A DNA stretch of 64,000 bases, taken from an uncultured Pseudomonadota bacterium. GTDB lineage: Bacteria; Pseudomonadota; Alphaproteobacteria; Acetobacterales; Acetobacteraceae. The stretch is taken from NCBI GenBank assembly GCA_963780465.1, contig CAWACI010000006.1, positions 11,676 through 75,675 on the forward strand, read 5' to 3'. The translations under genes were made by a program, and so were the position numbers. The notes beneath the pieces are model-generated. The model did not search any database, was not told where the DNA came from, and saw nothing but the letters and a program-made list of their open reading frames with translations. Of this stretch, positions 6,689-52,657 are shown piece after piece (the stretch's first letter is position 1; each line of letters begins with the position of its first letter).

Positions 6689-7197
6689 GGCTGATCATCT
6701 GCCCGCTGGCGCAGCTCGACGCGGCTTTGGCCCTGGCCCCGTCGCATGTGCTCACGCTGCTCGCACCGGGCGCCGAGATACCGTCCTGTCCCACCATCGC
6801 CCTTGCCGGGCGCCTCGTCCTTCGCTTCAACGACATTAACGGGCCCGCAGAAGGCTTAACCCACGCCAGCCGCAAAGATATCGAAACCCTCATCGCCTTC
6901 GCGCAAAGCTGGCGCGGCCCCGCCCCGTTCGTGGCACATTGCTGGGCAGGCATCAGCCGCTCGACCGCCGCTGCCTATATCATCGCCTGCCTGCACCATG
7001 CACCCGGCAACGAGCAGGACCTGGCCCTCCGGTTGCGCCACGCAGCCCCGCAGGCCACGCCCAATCCCTGGATGATCGCGCTGGCCGATGACATTCTTGG
7101 CCGCTCCGGACGCATGACCCAGGCCATCACCAGCATCGGCCGCGGCCGCGAAGCCGGGCTGGGAGAGCTGTTCGCGCTGGAAGTGGCCGCTTTTTGA
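6685..7197 (+). CDS. Predicted protein-tyrosine/dual-specificity phosphatase-fold protein (CX5R)
   Basis: GTG overlaps the cobS stop (GTGA). 170 aa with HCWAGISRS P-loop (6937-6963), LRFNDI acid loop and A.PNP..IALAD motif. Confidence 0.85.
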   Translation: MRLIICPLAQLDAALALAPSHVLTLLAPGAEIPSCPTIALAGRLVLRFNDINGPAEGLTHASRKDIETLIAFAQSWRGPAPFVAHCWAGISRSTAAAYIIACLHHAPGNEQDLALRLRHAAPQATPNPWMIALADDILGRSGRMTQAITSIGRGREAGLGELFALEVAAF

Positions 7198-7315
7198 AAA
7201 AAGCGGCGCAAAAACTTATTGTCCCTATGGGACTTTGGCGCTGAAACAAACACAGCCCAGATTAATAAAGTTTTTTTGCTACTTTTTGTTCACAAAAAGT
7301 AGCCTTACCTCTCTA
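7185..7315. repeat. MITE-like repeat, copy 2 (core only) between convergent genes
   Basis: GCCGCTTTTTGAAAAAAGCGGCGC-AAAAACTT...GCCCAG...AAAGTTTTTTTG-CTACTTTTTGTTCACAAAAAGTAG. Confidence 0.88.
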
Positions 7316-22990: not shown

Positions 22991-23112
22991 AACGAGAGCT
23001 TCCTTCCAACTGGTTGCGCGCAATGCCTCCCGTTCTAACGGCTAGGCTGTTTTTGACAACTTTGCGGGAGCGTTTTCCACCAAGCGCGCGTCGGATCGCG
23101 GTTAGAAGCCGG

Positions 23113-23250
23113 AAAGCAGCCGCTTTTAAAAAAAGCGGCGCAAAAACTTTTGCTCGTTTGGGCCTGTGGCGCTGCAACCAACACGGCCCAAATTACAGAA
23201 GTTTTTTTGCTTCTTTTTGTTCACAAAAAGAAGCCTTTCTCTGCGCTTCA
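23113..23250. repeat. MITE-like repeat, copy 4 (core only)
   Basis: AAAGCAGCCGCTTTTAAAAAAAGCGGCGC-AAAAACTTTTG...TTGGGCC...GGCCCAA...AAGTTTTTTTG-CTTCTTTTTGTTCACAAAAAGAAG. Overlaps the LLM gene stop. Confidence 0.88.
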
Positions 23251-24279
23251 GCCCAGCAAGTCGCGGACCCGTGGCATCACCTGGCTCCCGTAGAGCTCGA
23301 TGCTCCGCATGAGGTTCTCATGCGGCAGCGAGCCGGCGCTGTATTTCAGCTCGAAGCGGGTAATGCCGAGTGCCTTTACCGTCGCAGCGATTTTGCGCGC
23401 GACCGTCTCCGGCGATCCGACATAGAGCGAGCCGTGATCGGCTTCCTGGTCGAATTGCCCCCGTTCCAACGGCGGCCAGCCGCGCCCGGCGCCGATCCGG
23501 TCGAGCATCCGCTTGTAATGCGGCCAGAGTTCCTCACGCGCTTGCGCGTCGGTATCGGCCACATAGCCGGGCGAGTGAACGCCGATGTCCAATACCGGCT
23601 GCCCAAGCTTCTCGAAAGCACGATGATATAATTCGACATAAGGCGCAAAGCGCGCCGGATCGCCGCCGATGATGGCGAGCATCAGGGGCATGCCGTAGCG
23701 TACGGCCCGCAGCACGGAAGTCGGGCTGCCGCCGACGCCGATCCAGGTTTTCAATATTCCCGTCTCGATCGGTGGAAAGACGCGCTGATCCCTCAAAGCC
23801 GGGCGCGTCTTGCCTTCCCAGGTCACGGCCTCCTGCCGGAGCAATGCGGCAAAAAGGTCGAGCTTTTCCTCGAACAATTCCTCGTACTGGGAGAGATCGT
23901 AGCCGAAGAGCGGAAAGGACTCGGTGAAGGAACCGCGGCCGAGAATAACCTCGGCCCGCCCGTTAGAGGCGGCGTCCAACGTTGAGAAGCGCTGGAACAC
24001 GCGGATCGGATCGTCCGAACTGAGGACGGTGACAGCCGAGCCGAGCCGGATGCGGCTGGTGCGCGCCGCGATGGAAGCCAGCACGATCTCGGGCGCGGAG
24101 ACGGCAAAATCCGCCCGGTGATGCTCGCCTATGCCGAAAAAATCGATGCCCAGCCGGTCGGCGAAAACCGCTTCCTCGATCACGTTGCGGATTGCCTGCG
24201 CATGCGGCACCAGGCTGCCATCCGGCCCAGCGGTGACATCGCCGAACGTGTCCAGCCCGAATTCCAGATTATGGGTCAT
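23248..24279 (-). CDS. LLM-class (luciferase-like) flavin-dependent oxidoreductase
   Basis: FGLDTFGD, FGIGEHHR.DFA.SAPE, SAVTVLSSDDPIRVFQRF.TLD, GRGSFTESFPLFG, YVGSPETVA.KI. Confidence 0.92.
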   Translation of the reverse strand: MTHNLEFGLDTFGDVTAGPDGSLVPHAQAIRNVIEEAVFADRLGIDFFGIGEHHRADFAVSAPEIVLASIAARTSRIRLGSAVTVLSSDDPIRVFQRFSTLDAASNGRAEVILGRGSFTESFPLFGYDLSQYEELFEEKLDLFAALLRQEAVTWEGKTRPALRDQRVFPPIETGILKTWIGVGGSPTSVLRAVRYGMPLMLAIIGGDPARFAPYVELYHRAFEKLGQPVLDIGVHSPGYVADTDAQAREELWPHYKRMLDRIGAGRGWPPLERGQFDQEADHGSLYVGSPETVARKIAATVKALGITRFELKYSAGSLPHENLMRSIELYGSQVMPRVRDLLG

Positions 24280-24421
24280 AAGTTCCAGCTCGTTACGGGT
24301 TACTGCGGTCGCGCAGCATGAATTTTTTGCCTCGCATGCGGCCGACCATAGGAATAGTCATAATATTTCGATTTTATCCATCGGCATTGCCGATGGATAG
24401 ACAAGCGGACGCACCGTATTT

Positions 24422-25921
24422 TCAGTCGACCCAGGCGAATGATCGTTGCACCGCCTTCTTCCAGGATTTGTAGTGATGCGCGCGGGTCTCCTGCGCCATG
24501 TTCGGCGTCCAGGTTTTATCGACGCCCCAGTTCGCGCGCAGGTCCTCGCTGTTGCGCCAATAGCCGACGGCGAGCCCGGCCGCGTAGGCGGCGCCAAGTG
24601 CTGTGGTTTCGCTCACTTTCGCGCGTACCACCGGCACATCCAGAATATCCGACTGGAATTGCATCAGGAGCTCGTTGGCAACCATGCCGCCATCGGCCTT
24701 CAACGTGGCCAGCTTGATGCCGCTATCGGCCTGCATCGCCTCCACCACGTCGCGCACCTGATAGGCCGTCGCCTCCAATGCGGCGCGGGCGAGATGCGCG
24801 CGCGTGGCAAAGCGGGTCAGCCCGGCGATCACGCCGCGCGCGTCATCCTTCCAGTACGGCGCGTACAGCCCGGAGAAGGCGGGAACGATGTAGACATCGC
24901 CGTTATCCTCGACGCTGCGGGCCAAGGGTTCGATCTCTGCCGCGACATCGAAAAGCTTCATGTTGTCGCGCAGCCATTGCACCAGCGCGCCGGTGATCGC
25001 GATCGCGCCCTCCAGCGCGTAACGCGGTTTTTCGTTGCCGAACTGATAAGCGAGCGTGGTCAGCAGCCCGGCTTTCGACGGCACCGGCTCGGTACCGGTA
25101 TTCATCAGCATGAACGAGCCGGTGCCGTAGGTGTTCTTGACCTCGCCGGGCGCAAAACAGGTCTGGCCGACCAGGGCGGCCTGCTGGTCGCCCAAAATGC
25201 CGGCGATTTTCGCGCCCGCCAGCGGCGCGGTGGCGATTTCGCCATAGACTGCCGAGGAGGGCATAATTTTCGGCAGGCACGCGGCCGGGATTTCGAACTG
25301 GCGCAGCAGGTCCGCATCCCAATGGCAGGTGGAAAGATCCGTCAGCATGGTGCGGCTGGCATTCGTGACATCGGTCATATGCACGCCGCCATGGATGCCG
25401 CCGGTGAGGTTCCAGGTCAGCCAGGAATCGATGGTGCCGAACAGCGCCTCGCCGCGTTCGGCTTTTTGCCGCGCGCCCTCGATGTTTTCCAGGATCCATA
25501 AGAGCTTCAGGCCGGAGAAATAGGTGGCGAGCGGCAGGCCAGTTTTGGCGCGGAAGCGATCCTGCCCACCATCGAGCATGTAGCGGTGCACCAGAAGGTC
25601 GGTGCGCGTGTCCATCCAGACCAGCGCGTTGCAGAGCGGCTGCCCGGTCTGCCGGTCCCATAGCACGGTGGTTTCACGCTGGTTGGTGATGCCGATGGCG
25701 GCAAGATCGGCGGCGGTAAGATTGGCCCGCGCCAAGGCGGCGCCGATGACCTCGTTGGTGTTGGCGAGAATTTCCCGCGGATCATGCTCGACCCAGCCCG
25801 GCTTGGGGTAGATCTGACGATGTTCCTTCTGCGCGAGGGAAATGATGTTGCCGCGTTTGTCGAACACGATGAAACGCGAGCTTGTGGTGCCCTGGTCGAT
25901 GGCGCCGATATATGCCGTCAT
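24422..25921 (-). CDS. glpK: Glycerol kinase
   Basis: [61 protein letters not shown]. Confidence 0.97.
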
Positions 25922-25950
25922 TTGGTTCCCATTTTTATGGCAGAAGGTGA

Positions 25951-26098
25951 AGGAAGCGGTTCTTTTTTGAAAAAAAGAACCAAAAAACTTTTTATCCCCC
26001 CGGCGGTTGCATGGGGCAATGGCGTAGCCTCAGCCGCTGTCCGGAGTGGTAAAGTTTTTTTGCTTCTTTTTGTTCACAAAAAGAAGCCCTTCCTCCTT
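25951..26098. repeat. MITE-like repeat, copy 5 (diverged centre; overlaps the glpD 3' end)
   Basis: GGTTCTTTTTTGAAAAAAAGAACC-AAAAAACTTTT...AAAGTTTTTTTG-CTTCTTTTTGTTCACAAAAAGAAG. Confidence 0.85.
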
Positions 26099-27598
26099 CA
26101 GGTAAACCGCGAGCCGGGCCGCGGTGTCCGCCGGCATATGCAGCGCCAGTTTGGAGCGGCGCCAGAGAATATCCTCCGGCGCGCGCGCCCATTCCCGCGC
26201 CACCAGATAATCCACCTCCGCCGCGAACAAGCCGCCGCCGAAATCCTCGCCAAGTGCTGCCAGGCTTGTTGCCGCGCCCAGAATGTTCGGCGCGCGGGTG
26301 CCGTAGGCGCGGACCAGCCGGCGCGCCAACGGCAAAGGGAGGAACGGATAGCGGGCGGAAAATTGTGCGAGATAGGCTTCAAAATGAGCGCCCGGCAGAT
26401 CGCCGCCGGGGAGCGCCGCGCCGGCGGTCCAGCCGGGACCAACGGCGCGGCCCAGCAGGGGCAAGAGTTTTTCCAGCGCCTGTTCGGCCAGCCGGCGATA
26501 GGTCGTGATCTTGCCGCCGAACACCGAGAGCAAAGCGGGCTGGCCGGCGCCGCCTTCCACCGCCAGCACGTAATCGCGCGTCACCGCCGAGGCGTTTTGC
26601 GCATGGTCATCATAGAGCGGCCGCACGCCGGAATAGCTGCGCACCACATCCCCCGGGGTGACCCGGATGCGGAAATAGCGGGAGACGCTCTCGCAGAGAT
26701 ACGCGGTTTCCGCGTCTGAGATCTCTACCGAGGCGGGATCGCCGTTGAAGGCAATATCCGTCGTGCCGATCAGCGTGAAATCCCGCTCATAGGGGATGGC
26801 AAACACGATCCGTTTGTCCGGGTTCTGCAAAGTGAAGGCGAGTTCCCCCTCATAGAGCCGGGGCACGATGATGTGGCTGCCTTTCACCAAACGCACGGTT
26901 TTCTGCTCGTCACGCCCGAGTGTGGTGCTGAGGATGTTGCCGACCCAGGGACCGGCGGCATTGACCAGCGCGCGCGCCCTGACCGTTTCGCACCGGCCGG
27001 ATGCCTCCTCGATACGCGCGTGCCACAACGCCCCCTCGGGCCGCGCGGAGATCAGCCGGGTGCGCGTGCGGATATCGGCGCCGCGCTCGGCGGCGTCCAT
27101 GGCGTTCAGCACCACCAGGCGGCTGTCCTCCACCCAGCAATCGGCATAGGTGAACCCCCGGCGGAATTCCGGCTGCAGGATTCCGGCGGCGGGATGCGGG
27201 CCAAAGCGCACGGCGCGCGAGGCCGGCAGAAATTTGCGCCGGGCCAGATGGTCATACAAAAACAGCCCGGCCCGCACCATCCAGGCCGGGCGCTGGCCCC
27301 GCGCGTACGGCAGCACGAAGTCCAGCTTCCAGATGATATGCGGTGCGATGGTGAGCAGCCGCTCGCGCTCCCTCAGCGCCTCGCGCACCAGGCGGAATTC
27401 GCCATATTCCAGGTAACGCAGCCCGCCATGGATGAGCTTGGTGCTGGCCGACGAGGTGTGCGCGGCCAAGTCATGCTGCTCGACCAGCAGCACCGAAAGC
27501 CCGCGGCCGGCAGCATCGCGCGCGATCCCTGCCCCGTTTATACCGCCGCCGACAATCAGAAGATCAACCGGGTTAGCTTGGCCGGAACCGAACATCAT
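26030..27598 (-). CDS. glpD: FAD-dependent glycerol-3-phosphate dehydrogenase
   Basis: IVGGGINGAGIARDAAGRGL, TSSASTKLIHGG.RYLEY, VKGSHI, GGKITTYR.LAE, DILWRRSKL. C-terminal tail is read from the repeat. Confidence 0.96.
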   Translation of the reverse strand: MMFGSGQANPVDLLIVGGGINGAGIARDAAGRGLSVLLVEQHDLAAHTSSASTKLIHGGLRYLEYGEFRLVREALRERERLLTIAPHIIWKLDFVLPYARGQRPAWMVRAGLFLYDHLARRKFLPASRAVRFGPHPAAGILQPEFRRGFTYADCWVEDSRLVVLNAMDAAERGADIRTRTRLISARPEGALWHARIEEASGRCETVRARALVNAAGPWVGNILSTTLGRDEQKTVRLVKGSHIIVPRLYEGELAFTLQNPDKRIVFAIPYERDFTLIGTTDIAFNGDPASVEISDAETAYLCESVSRYFRIRVTPGDVVRSYSGVRPLYDDHAQNASAVTRDYVLAVEGGAGQPALLSVFGGKITTYRRLAEQALEKLLPLLGRAVGPGWTAGAALPGGDLPGAHFEAYLAQFSARYPFLPLPLARRLVRAYGTRAPNILGAATSLAALGEDFGGGLFAAEVDYLVAREWARAPEDILWRRSKLALHMPADTAARLAVYLKEEGLLFVNKKKQKNFTTPDSG

Positions 27599-27660
27599 GA
27601 AGCCGGACTCCGCATGTTTGGTATAAATACCCTATATGCGCCCGCTTGAGATCCGTAAGC

Positions 27661-27793
27661 GAAAAGCAGCCGCTTTTTGAAAAAAGCAGCGCAAAAACTT
27701 TTGCTCCTCTGGGCCGCTGGCAACGAAACCAGCACGGCCCAGATTAATAAAGTTTTTTTGCTACTTTTTGTTCACAAAAAGTAGCCTTCCTCT
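27661..27793. repeat. MITE-like repeat, copy 6 (core only)
   Basis: GAAAAGCAGCCGCTTTTTGAAAAAAGCAGCGC...CTGGGCC...GGCCCAG...CTACTTTTTGTTCACAAAAAGTAG. Confidence 0.88.
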
Positions 27794-27802
27794 TTGGCGC
27801 CA

Positions 27803-29341
27803 TCAAAATTGTGCGTGCAGCCTGAGCAGAAAAACCGAGACCGGCCCGCGCTGGCGGTTATAGGCAGGGTTGTTGAGGAACTGATAATCGGCCGTGAGGT
27901 GCGCGTAGTGCAGCACTGGCACGCTGTAATAGGTCTCGATGATCTGCTCAGGGCCCGCCTCGGGCAATTGTCCGTCGCCGATCAGGATGCCCAGGCCGCC
28001 TGCGGCGAAATACTCCTTGGCCTCGTGCGAGATCGTATTGATGGCGCCCGCGAGACCGAACGTGTCGTTGGGCCTGCCCCAGCCATTGCCCGCGAGCTGC
28101 AATCCGGCCGAGACGGACTGGCTGATATCGGTGTACTCGTCACCCTCAACCCCGCCATTATTGGCGCTCGCCCGCGCGAAGACGCCGAGTGCCGGCGTGA
28201 TCTGCTGCTGGATGTTCACGCCGAACCCAACCTTGCTGCGCTCGCGCCGCACATTGGCGGTCGAGGGCACCCCGCCGGTTTGCGCCGCCAGAGCCAGCGC
28301 GTCGCCATAGCTGCCGAGCATCCCGCGGGAGAGAAAATAGAGCACGCGGATCGCCCCCGGCTGGCCCCAGAGCGTGTGGCGCTCCTCGAGCTCGCCCACA
28401 TACTGCATCTGCTGCCCGAAGCGGTTGTCGAGTTTTTCGCCGTTCGGGATCTGCGACAGATCGAACGCGCCGAGGCGCGCCGTCCAGCGGCCTTGATACC
28501 ATTCGGCCGCGGCCCCGTAGGTGTAGCCCCAGGCGTTCGCGGCGTAGTCGAACGCGCCCATGTCGACTATCGACCAGTTCAGGAAGTCGTTGCGGGGGTC
28601 GTGCGCGTAGTCGTTATTGTCGAAAATGTCTGTGACCGAAAACTTGCCTATGGTGAGCACCAGCCGGTTGGCCGTTTCCGTGCCGCCAAGCTGGTTGAGA
28701 TCCGGATCCACTGTTTCCGTCGCGCCGCCGAGATCGATGGTCTGGCGGAAAAACCCCCGAGGCATCTGGTAATACGGGTATAGCTCGCCCACCTTGCTGG
28801 ATTCGGCATTGATGTAACCCGCGGCGCCGGTCACGTCGCTGAGGCCATAGCCCTGGTCCATCTCCGGGTTGATCCAGATCTCGCCACCCTTCCACGGGCG
28901 GTAACCGAGATAGAGCGTGGTATCGACGGTCTCCCGCCCGTTCGCGGCGGCGCTCAGGCTTTGCGGCCCCTGATAGGGGGAGCGGAAAGCCGGCTGCATC
29001 ATCCAGATGCTCGTCGCCTGGGCGTGGAACGCCCATTGCTGCGGTGCAGGGACCTCGGCTTGGTTGGCTGGCAACGGAAGGGGTGCTGGCTGCGGCGTTG
29101 GGGCGGCCTTCGCCACAAGCTGCGGTGCCGCGACCGTCACCCCTTGCCCCGTTTGACCAGCTTGTTGCCCGGTTTGCTTGGCCAATTGCAGCGGAACGGG
29201 TGCTGGCTGCGGCGTCGGGCCGGCCAACTGCGCCGCGGCGGCGAGAGGCCAGGAGGCAAAGCCGGCCGACAGGAGCGTGGAGAGAACCAGAAATTTCCGA
29301 TGGATGGGCGCGATCGACCGCACGGCAAAACGTGTTTGCAT
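27803..29341 (-). CDS. OprB-family ('carbohydrate') porin resembling the C-terminal barrel of MnoP-type metal porins
   Basis: Signal peptide and P/Q/A-rich linker, then FRSPYQGPQSL, NPEMDQGYGLS...G.AG, GKFS..DIFDNN.YAHDPR.DFLNWS, FDYAANAWGYTYG, GG.GILIGDG.L; C-terminal Phe. Confidence 0.82.
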   Translation of the reverse strand: MQTRFAVRSIAPIHRKFLVLSTLLSAGFASWPLAAAAQLAGPTPQPAPVPLQLAKQTGQQAGQTGQGVTVAAPQLVAKAAPTPQPAPLPLPANQAEVPAPQQWAFHAQATSIWMMQPAFRSPYQGPQSLSAAANGRETVDTTLYLGYRPWKGGEIWINPEMDQGYGLSDVTGAAGYINAESSKVGELYPYYQMPRGFFRQTIDLGGATETVDPDLNQLGGTETANRLVLTIGKFSVTDIFDNNDYAHDPRNDFLNWSIVDMGAFDYAANAWGYTYGAAAEWYQGRWTARLGAFDLSQIPNGEKLDNRFGQQMQYVGELEERHTLWGQPGAIRVLYFLSRGMLGSYGDALALAAQTGGVPSTANVRRERSKVGFGVNIQQQITPALGVFARASANNGGVEGDEYTDISQSVSAGLQLAGNGWGRPNDTFGLAGAINTISHEAKEYFAAGGLGILIGDGQLPEAGPEQIIETYYSVPVLHYAHLTADYQFLNNPAYNRQRGPVSVFLLRLHAQF

Positions 29342-29730
29342 GATAAAAGTCTCGATCAGATAAAAGGGAAGAAATTGGGAACCGGGCGCGGCTCACCGAT
29401 CGCGCCCGGCGCATGCCGGTCGCAGCGAGGACGTCCGCGCGGATCTGAAGTTTAGGCCGAACTTTACCGCAAAAATCGCGTAACATATTGATGTGGAACA
29501 GTTTCATTTGTTGAAACATGCGCCACCTCATTTCGTCGGCAAACTACGGAAATTTCACGCTAAGGTAGTATGCCGCGCCTGTTTTTGTTCGCCAAAGTGG
29601 CTAAACGAGACGATCTTGAGTCTTCGAGCAACTCCTTGTCAAGATTTCGTCTTGCCGAAACATGCCCGCAACGAATGCCAAGATTCGTTATGTTTCAATG
29701 TCTTATTGAAAAAACAGGGTAAAGTTCAGT

Positions 29731-31392
29731 TTAGGAAGCGCCGGTCAGCGCGAGCTCGATGATGCGTGCGATCACGAGACCGCCGGCCAGGAAGAGATAG
29801 CCCCGCAGTGCGGTCATCCAAACCCGCATGGCGGGGGAAAAGCCACCCGGCGGCAGCTGGTCGAGCGGCGGCATCCGCCACGTATCCTGCTGCGAGCGGT
29901 CGATGGGCGCTGCTTTCGGCGCGCCCCGCAAGCGTTTGGCGGCAAACATGCCAAGCGCGACGACCAGGGCCAGGACACAGCCGCCGACGAGGACAACCAT
30001 GATCTGCGTGCCGGTGATGGAGGGATAAACCACCGCGGCGGTGAGAATGACGGAGAGCAGCAGCAGCAGCACGATGACGACGCCGGTGAGCAGATTGATC
30101 CAGCGGCCATTGACCCAGGGGCCAAGCACAGCCTTATCATTGCAAAGCAGGAGCAGGAACACCGTGGCGCTGGGCAGCAGCACGCCGGCCAGGCCCTGCA
30201 CCGCGTTGGTGATAAGGCCAAGCGGCATGCCCGGGGTGAGCACCAGTGCCGCGGCGCCGAGCAGCAGGCCCGCATAGACGACGTAGAACAGCTTCGCGTC
30301 GGTCAGCTTGCGATGCAGAGAGTGTTTGAATTTAAAGACATCGGCGATGGCGTAGGCCGAGGAGAGCGAGACCGCCGAGGCGCCAATGATGCTGGCATCG
30401 ATGAGCGCCAGCGCGAACAGTACGGCGGGCAGCCTTCCGGCATATTTCTGCACCCCTTCGGCGACGCCGAGATCGTCGGTGAAATTGCCGAATTCGGGAT
30501 GATGGGCGAACACCGCAGCCGCTCCCGCCATCAGCGCTACCGCGCCGCCGATGACAATGACGAAGCCGATGGCGAGGTCGACCCGCGAATATTTGATGAA
30601 GCGCGGGGTGATGCGTTTGTCGATCACATAGCTCTGCTGAAAGAAGAGCTGCCAGGGCGCCAGCGTGGTGCCGATAATGCCGATCACCAGCAGCAGCACG
30701 GCGGCCAGGCCGTCCGAGGGCACGTTGGGCATCTGCGGAATGAAGAAGCCATGGGCCACCGGGCCGAGCGGCGGGTGCACCAGCACGAAGAACGGGACCA
30801 GCAGGAAGCTGAAAAAGATCAGGCACATGGCGAAGCGCTCGAAGCGCCGGAAGTCGCCGGTGCTGGCGGCGCCGATGATCACGCAGGCGGCGACGAGCAC
30901 GCCGGCAATCTTCGGCACGCCGAGATATTGCAGGCCGAGATTGACGCCGATGAACTCGGAGACGGTGGTCAGCGCGTTCAGGAGAAAAAGATCGATGACG
31001 CTGAAGGCGCCCCAGAATTTGCCAAAGCGCTCCAGGATGAGCCGGGCATGGCCGACGCCGGTGACGGCACCCAGCCGGATGACCATCTCCTGATTGACAT
31101 AGAGCACCGGCAGCATGAGCAGCAGTGTCCAGAGCAGCGAATAGCCGTAATCCTGCCCGGCCTGGCTGTAGGTGCTGAACGCGCCGGCATCGTTGTCGCC
31201 GGTCATGACGATGAGGCCGGGCCCGACAATGGCGAGCAGCGTCATGAAGCGGGCACGCCAGTTCTTGCGCGGCGCAGTGTCGTGCTGGGTGATGGTGCCG
31301 AACGCACCGCGGATATCGCCCAGATGCGCGTCATCGAGGACAGCGGTGTTGGCTGTGGCGGTGGAGTCAATCTTCGTCAAATGGGTCATCAC
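29731..31392 (-). CDS. NRAMP-related divalent cation transporter of the Mg2+-transporting (NrmT/NRMT) type
   Basis: GPGLIVMTGDNDAG in place of the MntH DPGN motif, and GTTLAPWQLFFQQS in place of GATVMPH. Multiple TM segments. Confidence 0.88.
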   Translation of the reverse strand: MMTHLTKIDSTATANTAVLDDAHLGDIRGAFGTITQHDTAPRKNWRARFMTLLAIVGPGLIVMTGDNDAGAFSTYSQAGQDYGYSLLWTLLLMLPVLYVNQEMVIRLGAVTGVGHARLILERFGKFWGAFSVIDLFLLNALTTVSEFIGVNLGLQYLGVPKIAGVLVAACVIIGAASTGDFRRFERFAMCLIFFSFLLVPFFVLVHPPLGPVAHGFFIPQMPNVPSDGLAAVLLLVIGIIGTTLAPWQLFFQQSYVIDKRITPRFIKYSRVDLAIGFVIVIGGAVALMAGAAAVFAHHPEFGNFTDDLGVAEGVQKYAGRLPAVLFALALIDASIIGASAVSLSSAYAIADVFKFKHSLHRKLTDAKLFYVVYAGLLLGAAALVLTPGMPLGLITNAVQGLAGVLLPSATVFLLLLCNDKAVLGPWVNGRWINLLTGVVIVLLLLLSVILTAAVVYPSITGTQIMVVLVGGCVLALVVALGMFAAKRLRGAPKAAPIDRSQQDTWRMPPLDQLPPGGFSPAMRVWMTALRGYLFLAGGLVIARIIELALTGAS

Positions 31393-31501
31393 TGTCTCTC
31401 GTGGCGCGGCCCTGGCGCATCACAACGCCAACACAACTCGTTGTTTGTTACGGAAGCAGACGATGATCCGCCGGCCGTAGCCGGGGACCGTGCTGTTTCG
31501 G

Positions 31502-31687
31502 TCAGTACGGGGGAGAAACAGGCGATGCCGAGGCGGCAATAACCCAGCGGCAGACCAGATGGCCGCACGCATCCCGCTCCCAGCGCATAACAAGGGCCGG
31601 GCGGGCTTGCCGGGAAACTTTCAGTGAATCTTGGGCGCGCAAGGCGCGCTGCGTAACAGTGCTATCAAACAGGAAAACGGCCATCAT
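31502..31687 (-). CDS. Small hypothetical protein (61 aa) upstream of the transporter
   Basis: Strong SD (GAAGGAGG) 3 nt before tandem ATG ATG. Contains LVMRWERDACGHLVCRW. Confidence 0.55.
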   Translation of the reverse strand: MMAVFLFDSTVTQRALRAQDSLKVSRQARPALVMRWERDACGHLVCRWVIAASASPVSPPY

Positions 31688-31974
31688 GGCCTCCTTCGCT
31701 CAAGGGGTGCTTGAGCCCGGGAGGCTAGGCCGGAGGGTCAGCGCGTCAGCGCAAACCCTTTACGGCCACATGCTCAGCCCGGGCGATGATGGAACCCTCG
31801 GACAGCGTTAGAATAGACGCAAAGCGCCTACTATCGCCTTCCGATGGTTCGGAACTAGATCGCGGGTTCATGTGTCCTCGAATGGAGTGGTAACTAACGA
31901 GTGTTGGCGATGCTTACACCGCGCAACGAGGCGGCGCGTATACCTCTGCCAGTATTCTGTCAATGGCTGACATG

Positions 31975-32497
31975 GCATATCTTCCAGGCTAACGCCCGCA
32001 AGCCGTCGACCGCGCGCTCATATACCTGCACCTGTTCGGCATCGGCATTCCGGCGCAGCCGGGCTGGAACCAGATCCGGATTGAATACAAGACGGCTACG
32101 CCATGCCGCATGGCGTAGCCTCCTATTTCAGCCCCCCATCGCGGCCGAAATATAGCCTTGCCCTCAAGGCCTGGCCGCCGATCGCGGCAGCAACGGAAAC
32201 CACTCGCGTCACCAGGACCATTCCGCTATAAACAAAACGGTCATATTCAATGAACAAAGACCGATGACTACCAAACGGCTGGAGCTTCGGATCAAGCGCA
32301 TGTCGACGCTACCCCAAGGCGATCTCCCAAGGCACGACGAGACCCAAGGCACTTGCCTGGCCGCCAACCTGCGGCCAGTTGCGGGCGCCGGGGGACAACG
32401 TCAACGGGTGCTTCTGAACCTGATTAAAACCCGCCCGAACGTACCGGCCAGGCCCAAACGGTTCCCCTGGCCGACTGACCGGAGGCAGGTCGCTTGA
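31975..32497 (+). pseudogene. Relic of a large AAA-ATPase/GAF/histidine-kinase sensor gene
   Basis: Two recognisable fragments: AVDRALIYLHLFGIGIPAQPGWNQIRIEY (32002-32088, AAA-region-like) and LAANLRPVAGAGGQRQRVLLNLIK (32357-32428, HATPase N-box-like). Abuts the response regulator. Confidence 0.55.
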
Positions 32498-33121
32498 GCG
32501 AGCCGCGCCCCGTCGTTTTCGTCGTCGACGATGATGCATCGGTGCGTGGCGCCGTGGAAAATCTGCTGCGTTCGGTAGGCCTGAACGTCGAGACGTTCGG
32601 ATCGACGCAGGAATTCCTGCAGAGCAAGCGTCCCGACGCGCCGGGATGTCTCGTGCTCGACGTCAGGATGCCGGGGCAAAGCGGTCTGGAGTTCCAACGC
32701 ACCCTGACAACCTCAAGTATTCATCTGCCGATCATATTCATTAGTGCTTACGGCGACATTCCAATGTCGGTTCGGGCCATGAAATCCGGGGCCGTTGAGT
32801 TCCTGACCAAGCCCTTACGTGAACAGGAACTGCTCGATGCCATTCAGCTCGGGATCGAGCGCGATCGTGCCCGGCGCCAGGAGGAAACGGCGAAGGCCGA
32901 ATTGCAAGAACGCCTCGAGTTCGTTGACGGCGCGCGAACGCGAGGTGTTGGCCTTTGTCATCACCGGCCGGTTGAATAAACAGATCGCCGCACAACTCGA
33001 TCTGAGCGAGACCACGGTGAAGGTTCATCGCAGCCAAATCATGCGTAAGATGCACGCGCGGTCTTTGGTCGATCTGGTACGCATGGCAGATACGCTCGGC
33101 GTTTCTGCCGAAAAGTCGTAA
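32494..33121 (+). pseudogene. FixJ/NodW-type response regulator (REC + LuxR HTH), one +1 frameshift as assembled
   Basis: VFVVDDD.SVR, CLVLDVRMPG.SGL, GDIPMSVRAMK.GAVEFLTKP. Extra T at 32920-32921, then LTAREREV...G.LNKQIA..L..SE.TVKVHR. Confidence 0.88.
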
Positions 33122-33283
33122 GTACCTAAACTAAAGTATAATTTCCTCCACCTTCTGGGCGATCCCGCTACCCCTCGCGCACAGGAAAACCTTATGCAGG
33201 TACATAAAAGCGCGCCGCACGCGCAATAGCTCAGAGCCATTTATTGGTTCTAGTCTCAGGCTTCAAATAGGAAGCCGCATGAC

Positions 33284-33673
33284 ATGTCAACGCATCCTGT
33301 GATCTCGATTGTCGATGACGATTTGTCCGTCCGCGAAGCGGCGCTCGACCTTCTCAGAGCCATGGGCTTCACCGCCCAGGCGTTCGAGAGTGCCGAAGAT
33401 TTTCTTGGCTCCGATCATCTTCATAGGACCTCCTGCCTGATCACGGACATGCGTATGTCCGGGATGTCCGGGCTTGAGCTTTACGACCGTCTGGTTGCCG
33501 CAGGCACCTCTATTCCGACGATCCTTATCACCGCTTTCCCGAATGACAGGGACCAGACGCGCGCAATGGCGGCCGGAGTCGCCGGCTACCTGACGAAGCC
33601 CTTCAATAAATCAGAGCTTCTCTCCTGCATCAACGCGTCTCTCAAATCCTCTGGAAACGAAAGGAAGGAATGA
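33284..33673 (+). CDS. Single-domain response regulator (CheY-like receiver)
   Basis: ISIVDDD, CLITDMRM.GMSG, ILITAF, GYLTKPF. Confidence 0.9.
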   Translation: MSTHPVISIVDDDLSVREAALDLLRAMGFTAQAFESAEDFLGSDHLHRTSCLITDMRMSGMSGLELYDRLVAAGTSIPTILITAFPNDRDQTRAMAAGVAGYLTKPFNKSELLSCINASLKSSGNERKE

Positions 33674-34146
33674 AATCGATGTCGATGTCCGCAGCCATGT
33701 GTCAACCGATCCGCCCTGTTGACGCCCCAACCTTGCACCATGCTCCGGGAACGGTGGCGGATACGATCGGGCGCATCATGGGCACCATCCCCATGGCCCA
33801 TACCGGTGGGCTTGCCATCTGGCAGATCCGCCGCGTAATCGCGTTCATCGAGGCCCATCTCGACACCCCGATCAAGGTCAAGAATTTGAGCGCCATCGTA
33901 CAACTCAGCGCATCATACTTCTCCCAGGCATTCAAAAAAAGCTTTGGAGCCGCGCCGCATGCCTATGTGATCCAGCGCCGCCTGGATCGCGCGCGCCACC
34001 TCATGCTCACCAGCGACGCACGGCTGAGCGAGATCGCGCTGACCTGCGGCTTCACCGACCAGGCCCATCTTTGCCGGCAGTTCCGGCAGGCCACCGGCCA
34101 CAGCCCCGCGGCCTGGCGGCAGCGGGCCATCGCCAGATCGGCTTAG
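33670..34146 (+). CDS. AraC-family transcriptional regulator (HTH domain only)
   Basis: GGLA.WQ.RRV..FIE.HL, LSASYFS.AFK.SFG..PH.Y, LSEIAL.CGF.DQAHL.R.FR...G.SP..WR. Confidence 0.9.
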   Translation: MKSMSMSAAMCQPIRPVDAPTLHHAPGTVADTIGRIMGTIPMAHTGGLAIWQIRRVIAFIEAHLDTPIKVKNLSAIVQLSASYFSQAFKKSFGAAPHAYVIQRRLDRARHLMLTSDARLSEIALTCGFTDQAHLCRQFRQATGHSPAAWRQRAIARSA

Positions 34147-34268
34147 GTTAGAAAAAAGCGCAAAATTTTTGCTCCTATGAGACTGCGGCGTTGACACCAG
34201 AACGGCCCAGTTTAAAAAAATTTTTTTGCTTCTTTTTGTTCACAAAAGAAGTCCCGTTCTCCGCTTCG
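34147..34268. repeat. MITE-like repeat, copy 7 (left hairpin truncated) between convergent genes
   Basis: GAAAAAAGCGC-AAAATTTTTG...GGCCCAG...AAAAAATTTTTTTG-CTTCTTTTTGTTCACAAAAGAAG...TCCGCTTCG. Both flanks are stop codons. Confidence 0.85.
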
Positions 34269-35451
34269 CTAGGCGGCAGAACCGGCGGCAAAACCGCTGG
34301 ACCAGGCCCACTGAAAGTTATAGCCACCCAGCCAGCCGGTGACGTCCACCGCCTCGCCGATGACGAACAGGCCGGGCACCTCGGTGGCGCCCATGGTCTG
34401 CGAAGAGAGCCCCGCCGTATCGACGCCGCCAACGGTGACCTCGGCCTTGGCAAATCCCTCGGTACCCGTGGGCAACAGGCGCAAGCAATTGATTTTTTCG
34501 GCGAGTTCCTTGATCTGCTTGTTCGGCATCTCGGCGATCACCTGCTTTTGCCGTTCTTCCGGCAACAGTGCCTGTGCCAGGCGTGCCGGGAAAATTTCCG
34601 CCAGAATGGTTTTCAGCTCCGCCCGGGGCCGTGCCGCCTTGCGCGCCAGCAGCAACTCATAAGCATCGGTCCCGGGCAGCATATTCAGCGTCAACGCCTC
34701 CGCTTCGCGCAGATAGGAGGAGATCTGCAGCACGGCGGGACCAGACAGGCCGCGATGCGTGAACAGCGCATTTTCGCGGAATTCGCGCTTGCCGAAACGC
34801 GCCACGGACTCGAAAGACACGCCGCTCAGCCCCTGCATCCACCCCCAGCCACCTCCTTCGAAACGTAATGGCACCAGGCCAGGTTTTACCGGCGTCACGG
34901 CAAGACCGAACTGCTTGGCGATATCGTAAGTAAACCCCGTCGCGCCGAGCTTGGGGATGGAAAGGCCGCCGGTCGCCAGCACCAGGGACATTGCCTCAAA
35001 CAATTCCCCGCCGGCCTGCACGCTGAACGCGACGCCGCGCGAAATGCCGGTAACGTTTTGCGCAAGACGCAGCTTCACACCGTTTTGCCGGCACAGGCCG
35101 AGGAGCATGCCGAGAATCTCGCGCGCGGAACCGTCACAGAATAGCTGGCCAAGCCGCTTCTCATGATAAGCGATGCCGTGCGCCTCGACCAAATTGATAA
35201 AGTCCCGCGACGAAAATTTGGCCAGTGCCGATTTGACAAAATGCGGATTGCCGGAAAGAAAATTCTCGGCCTTGACAGACAAATTCGTAAAATTACAGCG
35301 TCCGCCACCGGAGATGAGGATTTTTGCGCCCGCTTCCGCCGCATGGTCAAGCACCAGGACTTCGCCGCCCCCGCCGCGCCGCGATGGCAGCGCAGAATAG
35401 TCCCGCCGCTCCTGCGCCGATAACCACCACATCAAACACCGCTTTCGTCAA
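34269..35451 (-). pseudogene. YhiN/HI0933 (BaiN-like) NAD(P)/FAD-dependent oxidoreductase, one +1 frameshift near the 5' end as assembled
   Basis: TTG at 35451 gives MTKAVFDVVVIGAGAAGLFCA. Extra A at 35361-35362, then KILISGGGRCNFTN, ATGGLS.PKLGA, FTHRGLSGPA, AEVT.GGV, GE.VDV.G.LGGYNFQWAWSSG. Confidence 0.9.
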
Positions 35452-35594
35452 AATCTTACTCCGGTCTAGTCACTGCTTGTAGCCCGGGAGTGTTTATGCG
35501 TTTGTCGCCGTTGTGGCAAAGACGTCGCGCCGCGTTTATACGCAACGGCGCGGCTGTCGTCGCCAACAGCGACGAGCCTCTCATCGCGCAAGCC

Positions 35595-35770
35595 TGGAGC
35601 CCGATCGATTTTGGACAAATCATATCGAAGCGAAGAAGAGGAAGGCTTCTTTTTGTGAACAAAAAGAAGCAAAAAAACTTTTCTAAACTGGGCCGTGCTG
35701 ATATCAACGCCACAGGCTCAAAGGAGCAAAAATTTTTGCGCCGCTTTTTTAAAAAGTCGATCTGGCTCTA
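35595..35770. mobile_element. MITE-like element, copy 8, both TIRs recognisable; its terminal TA is the IS630 insertion site
   Basis: Left TGGAGCCCGATCGATTTTGGACAAATCATA and right ...AAAGTCGATCTGGCTCTA (rc TAGAGCCAGATCGAC) both match the TAGAGCCTGATCG TIR. Confidence 0.82.
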
Positions 35771-36895
35771 TTAATCAGTCCATAAATAAGTTCATGCCTA
35801 GGCGGCGTATTTCAGAGAAGGTTTCTGGTAGAAGGAACGAATTTTTTGCGGATTTTTTTGGAGGCTACGCATCGATGAAACCACGTTTCTTTTGAAGTTG
35901 GCCTTGCTCGTCGTGGCCATCCGTCCCACAGTATCGGCTTTCAGGTGTTTCCAAACGAGTTCGTCGGGATTGCGGTCTGGAGAGTAGGGTGGCAGGAAAA
36001 ACAGCTTCAATTTCCCGCCGAGCGTTTCAACAAATGCTGTTGTCTTTTTCGCGCGATGGGCGGGACCATTATCGACGATCAGAAAAATCGTTCGCACAGC
36101 GCCGATCATCAGCCGCTTCAGAAACTCAATGAACACATCGGCGTTCACACCGCCTTTTTCCTTAATCATAAATCGCATCAGGCCTTTCGATGAAATCGCC
36201 GAAATCAGGCTAAGGCTGTGGCGAGCGCCTGTTGTTTCAACGATAGGTGTCTCACCTCGTTTGCCCCATGTCCGTCCCGCGTGATGGTCCGAACGCATGT
36301 GCGCAGCATCGCCAAAATAGATGTCAGCGCCTTGTGCTTGCGCCATTTTCTTGATCTTCGGATATTCACTCTTCAGCCATTTTTGAACCAACGCCTCGTC
36401 ACGCTCAATTGCACGATGCAAAGGTTTCTGGCAGGTGATGCCGAGCTGCGCCAACAAGCGGCCGACGGAGTTTCTGGCCAGCCTGATACCGTATTTTCTC
36501 TTGATCAACTCGGCGACCATCTCCCGCGTCCATAGTGCAAATTCGAACTTGAGCTGCTGCGGAGTTTTCTGCGTCACGGTGTCGTAAATCCACTTCAGCT
36601 TCCTGTCGTCTAACTTCGGCGGACGACCTGCCAAAGGCTTCGCCTTCAGGGCATTCCAACCGCCACCACGGTAATCCGCCAACCATTTATACATAGCCCG
36701 GATCGTTACCCTTAATGTTCGCGCCACAATCTCGGGGCTTTCCCCGTCTTGCACGCTGCGTACCGCGCGCACCCGCAGCGCCTCCAGGGTTGCGTGATCC
36801 AACTTGCGAGCATCATCGTCTCTCATGCCGAAAAGGAATCACAGCCAACCCAACGCGTCAATAAAAAAATGCACTTACTTACGGACTGCTTAATA
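35769..36895 (-). mobile_element. IS630-family insertion sequence (coordinates include flanking TA dinucleotides)
   Basis: IRs TATTAATCAGTCCATAAATAAGT / rc TATTAAGCAGTCCGTAAGTAAGT (20/23); TA at both ends. Confidence 0.93.
35798..36826 (-). CDS. IS630-family transposase, single intact ORF
   Basis: HTH N-terminus (GRPPKL), WT..MV..LI, YFGDAAH, LIVDNGPAH, FLPPYSPDRNPDELVW. Confidence 0.95.
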   Translation of the reverse strand: MRDDDARKLDHATLEALRVRAVRSVQDGESPEIVARTLRVTIRAMYKWLADYRGGGWNALKAKPLAGRPPKLDDRKLKWIYDTVTQKTPQQLKFEFALWTREMVAELIKRKYGIRLARNSVGRLLAQLGITCQKPLHRAIERDEALVQKWLKSEYPKIKKMAQAQGADIYFGDAAHMRSDHHAGRTWGKRGETPIVETTGARHSLSLISAISSKGLMRFMIKEKGGVNADVFIEFLKRLMIGAVRTIFLIVDNGPAHRAKKTTAFVETLGGKLKLFFLPPYSPDRNPDELVWKHLKADTVGRMATTSKANFKRNVVSSMRSLQKNPQKIRSFYQKPSLKYAA

Positions 36896-51677: not shown

Positions 51678-52657
51678 ACTTTATCCATCTGCTTGCGTGC
51701 CGGAACCGGCGTTTCCGCCACCGGCGTCAGCGGCCCCTTGCCTTCGAACCAGGAGATCACGTTATCGATGACCAATTGCGCCATCAACCCGCGCGTATGA
51801 TGCGTGGCCGTGCCGATATGCGGCAACAGCACCACATTCTCCATCTGCTTCAGCGCGTCGGGCACATGCGGCTCCTTGGCGAACACGTCGAGGCCCGCGG
51901 CCAGGATCTTGCCGGTTTGCAGCGCTTCGATCAGCGCCGCCTCATCAACCACCGATCCGCGCGCCACGTTGATAAGAATCCCATTCGGCCCGAGTGCGGC
52001 AAGAATTTCCGCGTCGACGACGTTTTGCGTCTGCGGACCGCCCGGCAGCACCACGATCAGAACATCGACCGCTTCCGCCAGGCTCTTCAGCGTCGCGTGG
52101 TACGGGTAGCGCAGATCCGGCTGCGGGCGGCGCATGAACACCGAGACCGGAATGTCGAAACCGTCGAGCCGCTTGGCAATGACCTTGCCGATGCGCCCCA
52201 TGCCGGCGATGCCCACCTTGCGGCCGCGCAGCGAGGCGCCGAGCGGAAACGCCTCGCTCTTTTCCCACTGGCCCGAGCGTACGAAACGGTCCGCCTGCGG
52301 AAAGCTGCGGATGGTCGTCAGCATCAACCCCACGGTGAAATCCGCCATCTCGTCGTTCAGCACATCCGGCGTATTGGTCACCACCACGCCGTGCTTCGCG
52401 GCGGCGGCCACATCCACGGAATCATAGCCGACGCCGAAATTGCTGACGATTTGCAGGTTCGGCAGGCGTTCGATCAGTTCCGCGGTGGTGCGAATCCGGC
52501 CGCGGGTCACCAGGCCCACAATGTCCTTGCCATGTTCGGCAATGATGTTGTCCAGCCCCAGAACATCGTCACGAAAAACCTCGTAACGTTCGGCCAGGGC
52601 CGCATCGACCCGCTTGTCCATCGCGCCAATGCTCAGAATTTTAATACGATTGCTCAT
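51674..52657 (-). CDS. D-isomer-specific 2-hydroxyacid dehydrogenase
   Basis: FGVGYD.VD, TNTPDVL, G.AGMGRIG, LINVARGSVVDE, AGLDVF..EP, LLPHIG.AT. Confidence 0.93.
   Translation of the reverse strand: MSNRIKILSIGAMDKRVDAALAERYEVFRDDVLGLDNIIAEHGKDIVGLVTRGRIRTTAELIERLPNLQIVSNFGVGYDSVDVAAAAKHGVVVTNTPDVLNDEMADFTVGLMLTTIRSFPQADRFVRSGQWEKSEAFPLGASLRGRKVGIAGMGRIGKVIAKRLDGFDIPVSVFMRRPQPDLRYPYHATLKSLAEAVDVLIVVLPGGPQTQNVVDAEILAALGPNGILINVARGSVVDEAALIEALQTGKILAAGLDVFAKEPHVPDALKQMENVVLLPHIGTATHHTRGLMAQLVIDNVISWFEGKGPLTPVAETPVPARKQMDKV

Follow-up and report, generated by a model that had tools for sequence, protein, structure and literature searches.

Does an NRAMP-family transporter gene next to an outer-membrane porin gene mark a two-membrane uptake route for a divalent cation, and if so, for which one? 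This question is raised by a locus in a 64,000-nucleotide (nt) stretch of contig CAWACI010000006.1 (assembly GCA_963780465.1) from an uncultured member of the Acetobacteraceae; we refer to the whole stretch as the window. On its minus strand, the NRAMP-family gene is followed by a gene for an OprB-family porin and then by glpD and glpK. The source assembly comprises 3.55 Mb in 18 contigs and is 97% complete. We favor, with a probability of about 55%, the reading that the first two genes form an optional cation-uptake module, made up of an NRMT-type importer (a NRAMP-related Mg2+ transporter) and an MnoP-like porin. The porin would pass the hydrated cation through the outer membrane, and the NRMT-type protein would import it across the inner membrane. 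We infer that the substrate is Mg2+ and probably also Mn2+.

The initial annotation of this DNA, made from the sequence alone, had noticed altered motifs in place of the DPGN and MPH of MntH and had assigned the transporter to the NRMT type. An alignment with the canonical MntH of the same genome bears out the altered motifs: DPGN is changed to DAGA and ATIMPH to TTLAPW, within MTGDNDAGAF in transmembrane helix 1 and GTTLAPWQLFF in transmembrane helix 6. The assignment also held, as NRMT-like. In a phmmer search, the top match of the transporter in the PDB was EleNRMT (7QIA; E value 3.5e-52, 181 bits), compared with at most 80 bits for DMT and MntH structures. The defining signatures of NRMTs are DxxG (helix 1) and TxxA/T (helix 6); in EleNRMT, Thr224 is required for Mg2+ and Gln379 is important for transport (PMC8806188). 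The helix-6 signature is present as TTLA in the window transporter and as TT[VIL]APW in all 44 orthologs, and a helix-10 glutamine of the transporter aligns with Gln379. Helix 1 reads DAGA in 40 of these orthologs and DAGG in the other 4. Full-length orthologs, including two extra C-terminal helices, were found with 55-67% identity in approximately 56 of 300 Acetobacteraceae genomes; among congeners of the source organism, the genome termed G016 is the only carrier. By these sequence features, the window transporter is NRMT-like with one signature position unmatched. It is a putative Mg2+ transporter.

The OprB-family porin, which had been placed 390 nt downstream on the same strand, was confirmed there (PF04966; gap of 389-390 nt), and the assembly has no other OprB-family gene. 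It has a signal peptide, a Pro/Ala/Gln-rich linker and a β-barrel at residues ~100-512. An AlphaFold2 model had a predicted local distance difference test score of 82, mostly above 90 in the barrel (100-512), with residues 1-91 disordered. The best fold match of this model in Foldseek was Pseudomonas putida OprB (4GEY; E value 6e-21, TM-scores 0.61/0.73) at 16% identity, and a phmmer search of the porin against all PDB chains gave no match. Most of the 120 best porin homologs (57-91% identity) are named "high affinity Mn2+ porin" by the Joint Genome Institute (JGI), after the KEGG name mnoP. Identity to Bradyrhizobium proteins was 52-58%; B. betae has two OprB-family genes. NCBIfam holds no specific name for this porin clade or for the second clade described below. 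Neither linkage to sugar genes nor closeness to Pseudomonas OprB, the two marks of a carbohydrate-selective OprB, was found for the window porin. In the passages of PMC9334652 and PMC6011978 that cite it, MnoP (blr0095) of Bradyrhizobium japonicum is a channel that conducts Mn2+ through the outer membrane and is regulated jointly with MntH, the NRAMP protein of the inner membrane. The window porin is thus classed as MnoP-like, belonging to the clade labeled "high affinity Mn2+ porin" by JGI, and it is a candidate ortholog of blr0095.

Linkage of the two genes elsewhere was examined in approximately 150 porin neighborhoods overall, and an NRAMP-family gene was the sole neighbor that recurred in them. 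Among 31 porin-centered neighborhoods at the family level, NRAMP was the only recurrent adjacent gene family, always immediately upstream and on the same strand; the neighbor was of the NRMT type in the window, in G016 and in a further genome (G081), and of the MntH type in two others. G016 and G081 keep the pair despite different flanking genes; in G016, canonical mntH lies divergently upstream and a transglycosylase gene takes the place of glpD. From the side of the transporter, an OprB-family porin was found within 5 kb in 10 of the 44 ortholog neighborhoods. Three of these porins belong to the clade of the window porin and seven to a second clade, which is deeply split from the first and has homologs called just "porin" or "carbohydrate porin". 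Among 400 Alphaproteobacteria, both families were present in 22 genomes and side by side in 5; in three of these five, the partner comes from another NRAMP clade, marked by DPSG and TTISPY (DxxG plus Txx(S)). This class-level tally takes in one unpublished genome (G561), which contributes to the count alone. Since only ~0.1 adjacent pairs would be expected by chance in those 22 genomes, by a rough estimate, the adjacency exceeds chance. In GTDB genomes, an NRAMP-family neighbor was present at 10 of the best 80 porin loci; the NRMT-type pairs there include those of an Acetobacteraceae metagenome-assembled genome (MAG), of a close relative of the source genome and of a Xanthobacteraceae MAG. The initial annotation had proposed that conservation of the pair be checked and had allowed that homologs might never be linked to metal transporters; the pair recurs in the numbers just given and is the only conserved neighborhood feature of the porin.

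State changes were counted on a porin tree with 131 rows: at least 13 were required for adjacency to any NRAMP gene and at least 4 for adjacency to NRMT-type genes. Two deep clades of porins and at least three of NRAMP proteins take part in the linkage, and the paired genes share a strand in nearly all cases, with short gaps (-28, 35, 86 and 223 nt in other genomes). OprB-family porins have thus become linked to NRAMP-family genes, of the NRMT type and others, repeatedly and independently. These data bear on the view that the porin is a general diffusion channel, linked to NRAMP genes by shared horizontal transfer or by neutral gene order. Such a view would agree with the porin being the sole member of its family in the genome and with the lack of an NRAMP partner for 107 of 131 porins of the clade and of a porin partner for most NRMT orthologs. 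However, the repeated origin of the linkage, its strand and spacing, and the absence of any other recurrent neighbor of the porin from the 31 loci make it quite improbable.

Which cation the favored two-gene module would carry was approached through other Mg2+ transport genes. MgtC genes adjoin six of the transporter orthologs. In the 97%-complete source assembly, no CorA, MgtE or MgtA was found above the cut-off, and a tblastn search with CorA from two congeners gave no match at E values below 1. Of 30 congeners, 23 carry CorA; G016 has two such genes. MgtE is rare in the Acetobacteraceae (11 of 140 genomes). Among the 300 Acetobacteraceae genomes, 22 of those with an NRMT ortholog have CorA and 34 lack it; the corresponding numbers for genomes without the ortholog are 198 and 46. 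This inverse association has an odds ratio of 0.15 (Fisher p 1.7e-9), with genomes counted without regard to kinship. Half of the genomes with an NRMT ortholog and without CorA (17 of 34) are at least 96% complete. The source genome also has one MgtC gene, located at C15:250120.

The spacers of the locus were analyzed as well, and its features are listed in Table 1. In the present transporter-porin gap, the first ~280 nt after the transporter stop are a repeat. The orthologous spacer of G016 lacks this repeat and measures ~110 nt, so the native distance is taken to be ~110 nt. We propose that transporter and porin would still be co-transcribed in the source genome despite the insertion. The ~280-nt repeat appears distinct from an abundant miniature inverted-repeat transposable element (MITE) of ~145-200 nt. 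The MITE makes up the first ~145 nt 3' of the porin stop codon, so that the native porin-glpD gap is ~55 nt, and a copy also fills the glpD-glpK spacer (25940-26010, ~200 blastn matches). Apparent intergenic distances are thus inflated by the MITE copies in these two spacers.

Table 1. Features of the locus, in window coordinates
Feature	Position	Strand	Evidence or remark
Conserved structured leader	31662-31921	minus	found upstream of 43 aligned NRMT orthologs
Leader 5' start, CACATGAACCCGCGATCTA	31874-31856	minus	
Possible 41-codon upstream open reading frame (ORF) in leader	31871-31746	minus	
Terminal leader hairpin	31725-31720 with 31694-31689	minus	GCCTCC pairs with Shine-Dalgarno GGAGGC
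Small ORF, 61 amino acids (aa)	31502-31687	minus	starts at sequestered ribosome-binding site; motif RPxLxxxWxxxxxG(R/H)LxCxW
NRMT-type NRAMP-family transporter, 553 aa	29731-31392	minus	PF01566, E value 4.8e-78
~280-nt repeat element, recent insertion at TAA stop of transporter	29451-29730		10 genome copies, 97-99% identity
Native transporter-porin spacer, ~110 nt	29342-29450	minus	aligns with spacer of congener G016
OprB-family, MnoP-like outer-membrane porin, 512 aa	27803-29341	minus	PF04966, E value 8.7e-46
Abundant MITE directly after porin stop codon	27655-27802		~750 blastn matches in genome
Terminator-like hairpin inside MITE stretch, between porin and glpD	27690-27669		terminator scan
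glpD	26030-27598	minus	Pfam DAO/DAO_C
glpK	24422-25921	minus	Pfam FGGY

These distances matter for another explanation, which the initial annotation had offered as its alternative: the porin may serve glpD-glpK in the uptake of glycerol or glycerol-3-phosphate, its adjacency to the transporter being accidental. The shared strand, the short native gap and the naming of PF04966 for carbohydrate-selective porins are in keeping with this. In contrast, glpD and glpK were beside neither the porin nor the transporter in the other loci examined, including G016 and the other closest relative (L090), so that this adjacency is unique to the source genome among them. The low identity of the porin to the sugar porin OprB and the terminator-like hairpin between porin and glpD also speak against it. 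We therefore rejected glpD-glpK as the partner of the porin on grounds of conservation and consider this explanation very improbable.

Several further observations weigh against the favored module for Mg2+, beyond the lack of kinship correction given above. At the helix-1 position of the MntH asparagine, the window transporter has alanine, where the published NRMT signature has glycine. The inserted ~280-nt repeat may uncouple transporter and porin in this genome, and read-through from the porin into glpD is possible because the native gap is so short. No porin was nearby in 34 of the 44 NRMT orthologs, and the transporter can therefore do without one; the NRMT-porin pair is an optional module rather than an obligate system. 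The genome has four NRAMP-family genes, three of them NRMT-like (on contigs C6, C9 and C11) and one canonical MntH (C10). Since the two further NRMT-like paralogs could supply Mg2+ instead, the window transporter need not be the sole route for this ion.

The remaining points against Mg2+ favor Mn2+. The KEGG-derived name of the near homologs of the porin refers to Mn2+, and porins of the same clade adjoin canonical MntH in five loci from several genomes, so that Mn2+ may be a substrate as well. In G016, canonical mntH even lies divergent from the pair, and EleNRMT itself carries both Mg2+ and Mn2+, the latter with a Km of 119 µM (PMC8806188). The pair could thus serve Mn2+ instead of Mg2+: an MnoP-like porin would work with an NRMT-like protein that imports Mn2+ in addition to MntH and with lower affinity. 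A canonical MntH is already available in the genome, however. The helix-6 methionine, which lets NRAMPs pick trace Mn2+ over abundant alkaline-earth ions (PMC8806188), is replaced by alanine in the window transporter. Together with the MgtC neighbors and the inverse association with CorA, which point to Mg2+, this renders a pure Mn2+ route unlikely.

Other features of these neighborhoods were recorded. The NRAMP clade with DPSG and TTISPY adjoins MnoP-like porins in four loci of other Alphaproteobacteria, including one of a Caulobacteraceae MAG. In 8 of the 44 loci, the next gene 3' of the transporter encodes an EipB-like periplasmic protein (PF08904; assigned by scanning one representative against Pfam). 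A gene for a metal-sensing repressor of the CsoR/RcnR family (PF02583) is divergent from the transporter in five loci, one of which is that of G081, which also carries the porin pair. In G016, each of the two module genes contains one single-base insertion compared with the source genome (at ~10600 and ~11450 of locus L006), reflecting either real decay or sequencing or assembly errors. Farther upstream in the window, two overlapping ORFs on the plus strand (32494-33121) encode the receiver domain and the LuxR-type helix-turn-helix domain of a FixJ/NarL-like response regulator. The split suggests a frameshift near 32900; a stand-alone second receiver gene follows at 33284-33673.

How might the module be controlled? 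NrmT was first recognized through an upstream M-box riboswitch (PMC4072509). In an Rfam scan of positions 23000-36000 with E values up to 1, no match was found, neither to the M-box nor to any other known riboswitch. A different conserved leader lies 200-580 nt upstream of every transporter ortholog examined; upstream of porins without a transporter, it was not found in the loci examined. In the proposed leader structure of 47 pairs, 88% of the cells were paired, compared with 33-49% when the partners were slid. Compensatory change was detected in 27 pairs, in contrast to 11.4 in shuffled alignments, and none of 500 shuffles reached 27. An upstream GCCCGGG can alternatively pair with CCCGGGC in the leader, with CG-to-UA covariation. 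The ATG after the terminal hairpin is the start codon of the transporter itself in six loci; elsewhere, as in the window, it starts the small ORF, whose motif was found in at least 20 orthologous loci and which has no Pfam family. A candidate upstream ORF of 41-46 codons (MNPRSSSQPTE...) overlaps the structured part of the leader. On this basis, the leader may act as a translational switch in which a cation-related signal decides whether the ribosome-binding site is free or sequestered.

A second, orphan copy of the leader was observed on the minus strand of contig C7 (~51900-52290; ~6900-7290 of locus L077). Downstream of it come just a 57-aa small ORF that shares the W...G...W motif and, next, a convergent gene for malate synthase G; there is no transporter.

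Mg2+ is assumed to cross the outer membrane via general porins, and to our knowledge, no outer-membrane channel dedicated to Mg2+ has been described. Our literature search found no paper joining "NRMT" and "porin", and a review on Mg2+ transporters of bacteria, published in 2026, is silent on both porins and NrmT. Because the pairing recurs across Alphaproteobacteria, it points to a route, so far not described, by which Mg2+ and probably also Mn2+ would be taken up across both membranes. If the favored reading is true, the principle known from MnoP/MntH for Mn2+ would apply to Mg2+ as well, and the gene-linked module would explain how Acetobacteraceae without CorA or MgtE acquire Mg2+. A wider proposal is doubtful and offered tentatively: some Gram-negative bacteria would have a dedicated outer-membrane channel for Mg2+, an OprB-family porin recruited several times to NRMT-type transporters. 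In Acetobacteraceae, a leader RNA of a kind not yet described, with a short ORF, would respond to a cation, switch the whole unit and replace the M-box. The unit would provide the main Mg2+ supply of cells without CorA, MgtE and MgtA.

Compared with known systems, the transporter resembles EleNRMT of Eggerthella lenta and CabNRMT/NrmT of Clostridium acetobutylicum in the helix-6 TTxAPW, where Thr replaces Ala and Ala replaces Met, and in the conserved helix-1 Asp and helix-10 Gln. It differs in that helix 1 reads DAGA and not DAGG in most orthologs, in its length (553 aa with the two extra C-terminal helices, compared with 438 aa) and in its Gram-negative host. Unlike NrmT, it has no M-box riboswitch, and a different conserved leader stands in the place of the M-box. 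Genes of the window type are, in contrast to those of EleNRMT and NrmT, often linked to a porin, MgtC or EipB-like gene.

Salmonella mgtA and mgtCBR have Mg2+-responsive leader RNAs with short ORFs (mgtL and mgtP). The leader described here shares with them a long 5' region, a putative short ORF containing Pro and Arg, alternative helices and a Mg2+-related transporter downstream. The likeness shown is one of layout, and the output proposed here is sequestration of the ribosome-binding site instead of transcription termination.

Structurally, the predicted barrel comes closest to the glucose porin OprB of P. putida; both proteins belong to PF04966. Apart from the low identity, the window porin differs by its long Pro/Ala-rich N-terminal linker and by the lack of conserved sugar-uptake genes nearby. 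The nearest known system is MnoP and MntH of Bradyrhizobium, which are reportedly Mn2+-specific and encoded by unlinked genes; Hohle et al. reportedly described MnoP as the outer-membrane Mn2+ channel of B. japonicum in 2011. As in that system, where porin and importer are reportedly paired in function, an OprB-family porin would here act with an NRAMP-family importer. Near homologs of the window porin bear the KEGG name mnoP, and the porin resembles Bradyrhizobium proteins. In contrast to the Bradyrhizobium porin loci examined, which have no NRAMP neighbor, the two genes of the window are adjacent, and the partner of the porin is of the NRMT type and not MntH.

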